Assembly: GCA_016214105.1 (NCBI GenBank)
Contig: JACRPD010000023.1
Location: 1 to 40,193 of the forward strand
Length of the DNA: 40,193 bases
From: Candidatus Magasanikiibacteriota bacterium
Lineage (GTDB): Bacteria > Patescibacteriota > Patescibacteriia > Magasanikbacterales > UBA922
Reading direction: 5' to 3'
In this document: in pieces, positions 1,553-2,514 of the stretch
Numbering within the stretch: the stretch's first letter is position 1
How the letters are laid out: each line of letters starts with the position of its first letter
Notes under the pieces: model-generated
Seen by the model: only the letters and a program-made list of their open reading frames with translations
Databases searched by the model: none
What the model was told of the DNA's origin: nothing
Position numbers and translations under genes: made by a program

Positions 1553-1972
1553 ATGGCTAAACAAAATCTCCAATTAGGCCGGCGCTGGTATGTATTGCAT
1601 ACCTACAGCGGCTATGAAGAAAACGTCAAACGCAATTTGGAACAAAGAATTGAATCCTTTGACATGCGCGACAAAATTTTCGGCGTTTTGGTGCCAAAGG
1701 AAAAAAAGATTAAAATCAAAAACGGCAAACGCAACGTGATTGAAGAAAAAATCTTCCCTGGCTATGTTTTGGTGGAGATGATCGTTACCGATGATTCGTG
1801 GTATGTAGTCAGAAACACGCCGAATGTTACCGGCTTTATCGGCTCCGGCACCACGCCAACCCCGATTGACCAGAAAGTTGACGAAGAGCGCGGAAAAGTC
1901 AAAGTGCTCGTGAACATGTTCGGCCGGGAAACTCCGGTTGAATTGGACGCGTTGCAGGTGAAGAAGATTTAG
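1553..1972 (+). CDS. nusG: Transcription antitermination factor NusG: NGN domain intact, most of the KOW domain missing
   Basis: RWYVLHTYSGYEENV...FPGYVLVEM...VRNTPNVTGFIG is a typical NGN domain. The C-terminus KVKVLVNMFGRETPVELDALQVKKI matches the last KOW strands. Only about 10 residues join the two parts, and the protein is 139 aa versus about 180 for typical NusG. Confidence 0.85.
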   Translation: MAKQNLQLGRRWYVLHTYSGYEENVKRNLEQRIESFDMRDKIFGVLVPKEKKIKIKNGKRNVIEEKIFPGYVLVEMIVTDDSWYVVRNTPNVTGFIGSGTTPTPIDQKVDEERGKVKVLVNMFGRETPVELDALQVKKI

Positions 1973-1975
1973 GTT

Positions 1976-2069
1976 GGACTACGGACTACCGACTACGGCC
2001 GACCGCTGACTTGCTTACGGTTTCCACTCTCTCGTGGGGCGGTGGTCTGTAGTCCGTTGTCCGTAGTCC
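1976..2069 (+). repeat. Local hairpin formed by the left cassette arm (alternative to the long-range stem)
   Basis: Positions 1976-2004 pair with 2041-2069 at 24 Watson-Crick pairs plus 1 G-T out of 29. The loop is 36 nt. Confidence 0.65.
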
Positions 2070-2074
2070 AAAAT

Positions 2075-2446
2075 ATGTATTACCGATTTGAAAATCTCGA
2101 GGTCTGGAAGTTAGCAAGAGAATTTGTAAACCTAATTTATACACTAACAAGAAGTTTCCCAAAAGAAGAGCTCTTTGCCTTAACCAGTCAGATCAGACGC
2201 GCGGCCATTTCTATAATGTTAAATATAACCGAGGGATCTGACAGAAAATCAGACATTGAATTTATCAGGTTTTTACGCATCGCCCTTACTTCCTTGGAAG
2301 AAGTGGTTTCTGCCTTGTACATCGCCCTTGACCAAAAATACATAACACAAAAACAGTTTGATGAACTATACCCAAAAACAAATTTTTTAAGCAAAAAAAT
2401 TAACTCACTAATTAATTATTTAAACACAACTGCGATACGCAGATAA
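2075..2446 (+). CDS. Four-helix-bundle protein (23S rRNA intervening-sequence protein / Avd-like family)
   Basis: MYYRFENLEVWKLAREFVNLIYTLTRSFPKEELFALTSQIRRAAISIMLNITEGSDRKSDIEFIRFLRIALTSLEEV fits the family pattern (F..L.VW..A......Y..T..FP..E...L..Q.RRAA.S...NI.EG). The ATG at 2075 is preferred over the GTG at 2042, which lies inside the hairpin arm. Confidence 0.8.
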   Translation: MYYRFENLEVWKLAREFVNLIYTLTRSFPKEELFALTSQIRRAAISIMLNITEGSDRKSDIEFIRFLRIALTSLEEVVSALYIALDQKYITQKQFDELYPKTNFLSKKINSLINYLNTTAIRR

Positions 2447-2514
2447 AAAACGGGCTATTGCTCCAAAAGAGGCTTCTCAATAGTTCCGTAGTCTGTAGTC
2501 TGTAGTCCAACCAT

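Follow-up and report, generated by a model that had tools for sequence, protein, structure and literature searches.

The DNA analysed here is a 40-kb contig of 40,193 nucleotides (hereafter the window, in the coordinates of which all positions are given unless a comparison locus is named), with a G+C content of 44%, which is placed by its closest relatives among the Magasanikbacteria-like Patescibacteria of the candidate phyla radiation (CPR). The genes at its start are arranged in the order: end of gyrB, a minus-strand open reading frame (ORF), secE, nusG, an ORF of 123 amino acids for a four-helix-bundle (4HB) protein, rplK, ldh, a Kazal/DUF333 gene and rplA. The element in question consists of this 4HB gene (2075..2446, + strand) and of two complementary arms that enclose it between nusG (1553..1972, + strand; PF02357, E=4e-29) and rplK, the gene for ribosomal protein L11 (2515..2940, + strand; matches to PF03946 and PF00298). 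An earlier note, made from the sequence of the window, had described it as a cassette of the type known from the intervening sequences (IVSs) of rRNA, but residing in an mRNA operon. Loci and contigs used for comparison are designated by L-numbers.

The pairing counts of that note were all exact on recount. The left arm at 1972-1998 is complementary to the right arm at 2486-2512 with 25 Watson-Crick pairs and one G-U pair out of 27 positions, and the left arm can pair alternatively, at 1976-2004, with the segment 2041-2069 (24 Watson-Crick pairs and one G-U of 29), an alignment that is extendable to 28+1 of 33 positions (1974-2006/2039-2071). The limits of the stem were likewise as described: the left arm begins on the G (1972) of the nusG stop codon TAG (1970-1972), and the right arm stops at 2512, 2 nt short of the rplK ATG at 2515. 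The complementarity of the arms is far beyond chance, because the cognate pair scored 23.8 against a maximum of 11.7 among 60 shuffles (z=14). No target-site duplication was found flanking the arms (...GATTTA/GGTTGG ... CCAACC/ATATGG...).

Two features of the locus are not in the earlier note, the heptamer-array make-up of the arms and a set of gene-less hairpins upstream. Each arm of the bracket repeats a 7-nt unit in tandem, which reads GACTACR in the left arm and YGTAGTC in the right one. The heptamer pattern GTAGTCYGTAGTC, with up to two mismatches, gave 19 matches in the window against 0.23 expected, all of them within 1160-2512; this confinement within 40 kb speaks against a genome-wide dispersed repeat. 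Altogether the unit makes seven arms, A to G, across the secE-nusG-4HB-rplK region, all described here on the + strand, and gene-less hairpins of GACTACR/YGTAGTC arrays stand upstream of secE (1160-1244) and of nusG (1450-1532). Upstream of secE (1247..1438, + strand; PF00584, E=1.4e-20) lie arm A (1160..1193), a left-type array of GACTACA x4.3, and arm B (1218..1244), a right-type array (CCGTAGTCCGTAGACCGTAGACCAACC) that ends 2 nt before the secE ATG (1247). Between secE and nusG, arms C (1450-1472) and D (1499-1532) make up the gene-less hairpin H2 (1450..1532), with a fold of -26.9 kcal/mol (z=-3.4). Arm E (1972..2006), the left arm of the bracket, is built of (GGACTAC)x3.3, and its first base is the final base of the nusG stop codon; with arm F (2039..2071), the local right arm, it forms hairpin H3 (1972-2071; -54.7 kcal/mol, z=-6.0), which ends 3 nt before the 4HB ATG. 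Arm G (2486..2512), the far right arm, is built of (GTAGTCT)x2.9. Arm B is 89% complementary to 1972-1998, the best partner of arm A is arm D (34 nt, 85%), and the junction CCAACCATATG is identical at arm B/secE and arm G/rplK. The bracket also encloses a host spacer motif, GCTTCTC (2472..2478, + strand), between the 4HB stop and the right arm.

By calculation, pairing is possible between any left-type and any right-type arm, with energies of -21 to -49 kcal/mol; the duplexes of arm A with D, F and G fall at -33 to -36 kcal/mol. The strongest of all arm pairs are E x F (-49.1 kcal/mol) and E x G (-48.2 kcal/mol), which are nearly isoenergetic. As to the long-range stem of the earlier note, the minimum free energy (MFE) fold of 1960-2525 favoured it by ~12 kcal/mol, but the MFE fold of the whole operon chose other pairs, B with E and A with F or G.

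The enclosed ORF belongs to the family of 4HB proteins that was named after the 23S rRNA IVSs, as the earlier note had supposed from the letters. In a profile hidden Markov model (HMM) search it matched PF05635 with E=6.6e-38 and 129.6 bits (cut-off 33.8), over profile positions 1-106 of 106, and TIGR02436 with 124.8 bits (cut-off 24); by sequence it also matched the solved pentameric 4HB protein XCC0516 (PDB 2gsc; E=4.6e-18). The true start is the ATG at 2075 (MYYRFENLEVWK..., which fits the family consensus) and not the GTG at 2042. The family motif is GxxRxxxSxxxNxxE (PMC3936711), of which R42, S46, N50 and E53-G54 are invariant in the alignment, the first G of the motif being Q39 in the clade of the window. 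The gene is present as a single copy in the 40-kb window. A role in anti-phage defence was rejected since the protein matches no defence-system model of PADLOC. Avd, the accessory protein of diversity-generating retroelements, is a distantly related family of the four-helix-bundle fold, but the ORF stays below the cut-offs of the Avd models (NF033474, 24.4 bits, cut-off 80; PF22296, 33 bits, cut-off 40), the neighbours are nusG and rplK, and no reverse transcriptase or template/variable repeat adjoins it; an Avd identity was therefore also rejected.

The cassette lies inside one predicted transcription unit, as judged from three signals. A promoter-like site, TTGACA-17-TACTAT (1090..1118, + strand; a consensus match), stands upstream of secE and is likely the start of a secE-nusG-4HB-rplK transcript; a consensus scan found no comparable + strand site within 1500-2515, thus none between nusG and rplK; and an intrinsic-terminator-like hairpin with a T-run (2979..2998, + strand) would end the unit after rplK. 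A Shine-Dalgarno (SD)-like tetramer precedes only four of the 37 ORF starts in the window. Neither the window nor any of 10 relatives had an Rfam match that reached the gathering score (no rRNA, riboswitch or leader family), and a permissive scan of 1100-3100 (E up to 10) returned chance-level matches only; a known leader or riboswitch was ruled out by these scans as the identity of the element.

The nusG-rplK junction was then surveyed in the 80 best genome relatives by NusG, 4HB genes being sought by tblastn and HMM. nusG is followed directly by rplK in 79 of the 80, with gaps of mostly 3-260 nt, and no 4HB gene was found at this junction in any of the 79. The exception is the closest relative, L001, in which a 4HB remnant with an internal deletion of ~160 nt is found at nusG-rplK; in relatives with large nusG-rplK gaps, no hidden divergent 4HB gene was detected by HMM besides this remnant. 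L001 is 98.3% identical to the window in NusG and 95.7% in L11, with a synonymous divergence (dS) of ~0.5, and yet its arms are of another unit. Copies of GACTAC/GTAGTC number 8/9 in the window and 0/0 in L001, whereas those of GACTTC/GAAGTC number 0/0 in the window and 6/7 in L001; all arms of the L001 operon are built of GACTTCR / YGAAGTC, and their pairing is retained. Neutral arms at dS ~0.5 were calculated to keep only ~40% of pairs. Since the arms covary in this way, pairing despite the unit switch, their complementarity is actively maintained, by selection or by concerted evolution.

Searches through 4HB homologues revealed the nusG-4HB-rplK arrangement in at least 12 other lineages of Patescibacteria. 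The unit is GACTACR in L082 and L103, GACTTCR in L001, L086 and L101, GACTATR in L083 (Magasanikbacteria GW2011_GWC2_37_14), GACTAAR in L098 and of GCTTTC type in L104 and L105. Most occupied nusG-rplK loci lack a local right arm, and their left array ends at a distance of 0-20 nt from the 4HB ATG; in L001, L083 and L086, and in L092 and L096 from other operons, the left heptamer array even overlaps the 4HB ATG or ends at most 2 nt from it, while in the window the extra local arm F separates the two. Arm F is present only in the window, L082 and L101 and is absent in L001, L083, L086, L088, L103, L104, L105, L113 and L098; judged from the sequences compared, it is a lineage-specific addition. 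The switch between local and long-range pairing that the earlier note had suggested is thus not conserved.

The spacers of the relatives share a feature with the window at this junction. Of 60 nusG-rplK spacers that measure 40 nt or more, 30 contain the motif GCTTCT[CA] (background frequency 1.6e-4 per nt). Empty and occupied sites alike have it, and at the occupied ones the bracket encloses it, downstream of the 4HB stop and ahead of the right arm. The motif usually stands on the 3' side of a hairpin loop (relatives L002-L070) and may be an rplK leader or autoregulatory site; Uhrbacteria-like relatives carry a second motif type, GGTTGCC...GGAATCCA, in its place. Tandem arrays of 6-10-nt units were found in 15 of the 60 spacers (14 empty ones and L001), inverted array pairs without a gene are present in at least the empty spacers of L034, L066 and L078, and the spacers of L002, L009 and L028 fold around GCTTCT[CA].

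A wider survey of ~100 related loci indicated that the layout of a gene within a stem recurs far from this junction. 4HB genes generally lie between arrays of 6-9-nt units, most of them inverted; the unit varies by locus while the arms stay complementary. Modules of this kind lie between a SIMPL gene and eno (L092), after zwf (L094) and between secE and nusG (L114), the last at the position of the gene-less hairpin H2 of the window; one type IV pilus operon holds two 4HB cassettes with unrelated units, of AATCCTA type and GACTACR type (L096, 809-2904). Another module is lodged in a 16S rRNA gene (L164, 1-1927), as an insertion of ~1.1 kb after position ~790, in which the 4HB ORF is bracketed by a 27-nt inverted repeat and accompanied by at least four hairpins of the 8-nt units GACAGTTR / TCAATTGT. 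In cultured organisms outside the CPR, the 4HB flanks are (GTAGGGA)n ... (TCCCTAC)n in Nostoc edaphicum, (GGGAAAA) ... (TTTTCCC) in Nostoc sp. ATCC 53789 and (GGTTCAA) ... (CCTTGAA) in Riemerella anatipestifer. At another locus (L170, 480-2000), a pilC-like gene stands between two complete gene-less hairpins of one unit (GGGGTCAA), and the nearby 4HB gene uses a different unit, AGTTCGG; in L096 and L170, units appear to be shared between neighbouring spacers.

The bracketing was examined statistically on 80 metagenomic loci that had been chosen by the 4HB protein alone. The arm score exceeded all shuffles for 50 of 92 genes. Bracketing at z>5 was found for 25 of 74 metagenomic 4HB genes against two of 104 other genes, and arrays on both sides for 31 of 76 against two of 103 (Fisher p=9e-12). 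When right arms were swapped between loci, a control in which composition and tandem structure are kept, the cognate right arm was the best of 81 for 29 left arms, with ~1 expected. At 40 of 51 loci, the 4HB gene reads in the same direction as the genes on its two sides. This recurrence suggests a widespread, largely undescribed class of elements.

The 4HB gene of the window is under strong purifying selection. Between the window and L082, the nonsynonymous (dN) and synonymous divergences (dN/dS) are 0.010/0.625 for 4HB, 0.017/0.72 for nusG and 0.063/0.99 for rplK; for 4HB the ratio is ~0.02. The low dN at this dS indicates that the protein is made and needed. Against L083 and L086, the dN of 4HB is 0.22-0.25, similar to rplK and secE. 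As 4HB and the genes beside it have diverged to similar extents, the 4HB gene looks vertically inherited at nusG-rplK with repeated loss, and L001 shows decay in progress. No evidence was found for a recent horizontal replacement of the cassette, the 4HB dS against L082 (0.63) being like that of nusG (0.72). A neighbour-joining tree of low resolution places the 4HB proteins of the junction in a few groups of one CPR clade, mixed with copies from other operons; the tree is too poorly resolved to add on transfer.

Repeat structures of other units are present elsewhere in the window. A perfect-register hairpin of 8-nt units (TAAGTGNN / ACTTACNN) at 10958-11027, with 35-nt arms and no loop, fills the thyA-folA spacer without enclosing a gene and ends 5 nt before the folA ATG. 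Inverted GAGATAG-type arrays (17815-17930; 30-nt arms, 83% complementary) lie in the minus-strand leader of a MiaB-like gene (16399-17901) and overlap the annotated start of this radical-SAM/TRAM gene, the first ~45 codons of the ORF being probably leader and not protein. Two direct arrays are unpaired, a perfect (CATAATT)x5.1 from the end of tmk up to the next ATG (12177-12212) and (TAATTCA)x4.1 before ldh (3048-3076), and both resemble the start-codon-proximal heptamer arrays of other phyla. Tandem arrays of 7-9-nt units also occur inside long ORFs (a methyltransferase and a Wzy_C O-antigen-ligase-like gene) at 27561-27588, 28182-28211, 32332-32359, 32521-32550, 32817-32846, 32971-33017 and 33355-33379; they include three copies of a (AACAATTT)n array and an inverted pair of (CTTACGG)x4.3 and CGTAAG-containing units ~130 nt apart, and they may be in-frame insertions or mark miscalled genes. 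An ORF at 33496-34119 matches Y1_Tnp (IS200/RAYT-like), only its C-terminal half matching the profile, and contains a perfect 28-nt palindrome beginning GTAG (33823-33850).

The genes on both sides of the cassette show peculiarities of their own. NusG has 139 amino acids in the window against 181 in all 80 relatives: at the site 1874-1877, 126 nt (42 codons) are gone in frame relative to the otherwise identical contig L081 (run SRR12113407), a loss that takes away the linker together with the first half of the KOW domain. This deletion could be a population variant or an assembly artefact. On the other side, rplK and rplA are parted (2941-4986) by the terminator, an ldh/mdh gene and the gene for a secreted Kazal/DUF333 protein, so that the usual rplKA operon is split in this lineage, as it is in L083.

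ORF-bearing IVSs in 23S rRNA have been known for about 30 years. An rRNA IVS sits inside the rRNA gene, where it replaces the tip of a helix (23S helices 9, 25 or 45); its 4HB protein is also called S23p. The 23S IVS of Coxiella burnetii has a terminal stem of 28 bp, and directly before the S23p ATG it carries two or three tandem GACAGAT heptamers and a degenerate copy; the copy number of the heptamers varies by strain, one strain has a 176-bp deletion in the ORF, and the cut of RNase III has been mapped to the start of the first repeat (PMC4990558). As in the window, IVSs of the Coxiella/Leptospira type enclose a sense PF05635-family ORF by terminal inverted repeats and, as in L001, the ORF of Coxiella decays by deletion in some strains. 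The element of the window is different in that it lies between the protein genes nusG and rplK instead of 23S helix 45, in that its 4HB gene has a dN/dS of ~0.02 whereas the Coxiella ORF appears untranslated and decaying, and in its extra local arm and sister gene-less hairpins. Of what characterises an IVS, the long stem and the sense 4HB ORF preceded by heptamers are present in the window, but not the location in rRNA. 23S_rRNA_IVP ORFs have also been found within insertions of the 16S and 23S rRNA genes of CPR bacteria (PMC11270868), which are of the same phylum-level group and gene family as the window but differ in the rRNA context, and in that survey no stems or unit arrays are described. 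Other 23S_rRNA_IVP genes lie between cas genes and were read as having a possible Cas-associated function (PMC3936711); they resemble the window gene as co-directional insertions between operon genes, and flanking arrays are not mentioned there. No description of 4HB genes bracketed by unit arrays in mRNA operons was found in the literature.

Comparable heptamer arrays are the short tandemly repeated repetitive (STRR) sequences of cyanobacteria. Direct arrays of the heptamer TAACTGA lie beside start codons in Beggiatoaceae, Cyanobacteria and Bacteroidetes (PMC4679880). Both are, like the arrays of the window, intergenic tandem 7-nt units ending a few nt before a start codon, and the phyla concerned are those rich in 4HB genes. 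The TAACTGA arrays, however, are described as direct, with one genome-wide unit and no link to 4HB, whereas the arrays of the window are inverted pairs of locus-specific units. The Correia/NEMIS elements of Neisseria are miniature repeats in mRNAs that are processed by RNase III, and repetitive extragenic palindromic (REP) elements are mobilised by REP-associated tyrosine transposases (RAYT). As co-transcribed inverted-repeat hairpins for processing or stability, these are the closest analogues of the gene-less hairpins, but they exist as many near-identical copies with defined ends, in contrast to the operon-specific units and tandem-array arms of the window. An analogy to integron cassettes, as an ORF with a hairpin site, was dropped because no integrase is present.

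From these observations we infer an IVS-type cassette residing in an mRNA, in which a translated, promoterless 4HB gene is lodged in a heptamer-array stem and RNase III would cut the stem, thereby separating the cistrons; we hold this reading to be about equally liable to be right or wrong. That an IVS-type element can reside in a protein-coding operon, the central proposal of the earlier note, is supported by the family membership of the ORF, by the recurrence at many sites of the gene-in-stem layout with complementary arms, and by the layouts in 16S rRNA (L164) and in Coxiella. The 4HB gene would be transcribed by read-through within the secE-nusG-4HB-rplK operon, and the arms would most likely form an RNA helix of 27-33 bp, which may be E x G, enclosing the gene, or E x F, immediately ahead of it. 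A stem of this length is compatible with excision by RNase III, and by analogy with the heptamer stem of the Coxiella 23S IVS the helix may be a substrate of that enzyme. The cut would separate the nusG, 4HB and rplK mRNAs. In the absence of SD sites, a helix 2-3 nt from a start codon would block initiation, and cleavage would leave short unstructured 5' leaders. The gene-less hairpins before secE and nusG may represent a cargo-free version of the cleavage stem with the same job. The arms would evolve in concert, through slippage and arm-to-arm correction, so that units switch and complementarity is kept.

Several observations weigh against the reading as an RNA-level IVS-type cassette. Among the non-Watson-Crick arm positions of 40 loci, 47 are G-U and 56 are A-C, next to 134 transversion mismatches; as G-U is not above A-C, the arms bear no positive signature of selection on the sense RNA. 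Thermodynamic folding is ambiguous on which arms pair. Among the occupied loci, L088 (nusG-4HB-rplK) has mixed arms that are complementary only in part, and the arms of L108 are weak. In the cas6-4HB-cas4 locus of a Pseudanabaena galeata plasmid (L182, 1380-1960), the arrays are direct and not inverted, with (AAAGCTA)x~14 upstream and (AAAAGCC)x~9 downstream.

The symmetry of the mismatch spectrum would be expected if the element acted at the level of DNA. The inverted arrays, whether foldback terminal repeats, sites of recombination in hairpin or cruciform form, or substrates for a HUH/RAYT-type enzyme, would then be what moves, duplicates or deletes the 4HB gene, and the RNA stem would be incidental. 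This explanation, which we consider unlikely, would also account for the patchy occupancy, with 79 of 80 genome relatives empty and at least 12 other lineages occupied, and for the spread of the 4HB family over many unrelated operons and rRNA. If a unit of ORF plus arm had recombined into a gene-less hairpin, the outcome would be the succession of hairpin, ORF and second right arm seen in the window; conversely, the direct right arms at 2039-2071 and 2486-2512 could delete the gene and leave a hairpin of the secE/nusG type. Many 4HB homologues lie on contigs of ~1 kb, suggesting assembly breaks at repeats, and the Y1_Tnp/RAYT-like ORF of the window might encode an enzyme that moves hairpins as DNA. 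No transposase or integrase, however, is found in or beside the cassette, the units vary by locus and so offer no common end sequence to a trans-acting enzyme, and within 40 kb the GACTAC units are confined to the secE-nusG-4HB-rplK operon. The host motif GCTTCTC inside the bracket, the lack of a target-site duplication, and a 4HB dS and dN that track nusG and rplK, as with vertical inheritance, argue against movement as well, and the same three points weaken the idea of the earlier note that the arms mark the ends of a mobile cassette.

The position of GCTTCT[CA] inside the bracket of occupied loci also bears on another explanation, to which we give rather little credence, namely that hairpins of tandem units are a general host device before start codons, for stability, processing or translation, and that the 4HB gene landed as a passenger in the loop of a hairpin which already stood around the rplK leader motif and whose arms belong to rplK, so that the cassette would be no unit. 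Gene-less hairpins before secE, nusG and folA and upstream of the MiaB-like gene, arrays in empty nusG-rplK spacers (with the inverted pairs of L034, L066 and L078, and the folds of L002, L009 and L028 around the motif) and start-codon heptamer arrays in other phyla (PMC4679880) would fit such a device, and the direct arrays on both sides in L182 look as if the gene had landed in a single pre-existing array. Yet flanking arrays are enriched ~35-fold at 4HB genes over other genes of the same contigs, the left array abuts the 4HB ATG at most loci and in the Coxiella IVS, and the gene-in-stem layout is present also in rRNA, where no leader exists. A conformational switch, in which competition between E x F and E x G would regulate translation of 4HB or rplK, is improbable: the near-equal energies of the two duplexes (-49.1 and -48.2 kcal/mol), the short distances from the ends of F and G to the start codons that follow (3 nt to that of 4HB and 2 nt to that of rplK), and the presence of the local arm also in L082 and L101 would suit it, but L001, the closest relative, and most occupied loci lack the local arm, neither a ligand-binding or leader-peptide feature nor an Rfam match was found, and co-transcriptional folding would always favour the local hairpin. 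Chance or low-complexity complementarity of two simple repeats has a negligible probability, for although tandem repeats inflate alignment scores, the arms stand at z=14 against shuffles, the swap control keeps composition and tandem structure, and complementarity is retained across the unit switches of relatives.

The IVS-type cassette in mRNA may be part of something broader. PF05635 4HB genes and their 6-9-nt arrays in CPR, Cyanobacteria, Bacteroidota and Coxiella could constitute one autonomous class of stem-lodged cassettes, able to colonise any well-transcribed rRNA or mRNA, the 4HB protein binding, protecting, copying or moving the arrays; this protein would then be the missing factor behind both the rRNA IVSs and the STRR-type start-codon arrays. 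We regard this extension as doubtful.

ORF-bearing IVSs were known in rRNA, and what is new here is the IVS-type element of mRNA operons with arms of tandem units. The gene-in-stem layout is not tied to rRNA but is found also within essential mRNA operons, and short tandem-unit arrays, mostly inverted, are a hallmark of the 4HB family across phyla. The function of the 4HB protein thereby becomes testable in simple systems, and the family is linked to the long-unexplained start-codon heptamer arrays of Cyanobacteria, Bacteroidota and giant sulfur bacteria. Should the stems prove to be processing sites, they would represent a general punctuation of polycistronic mRNAs in bacteria without SD-led initiation.

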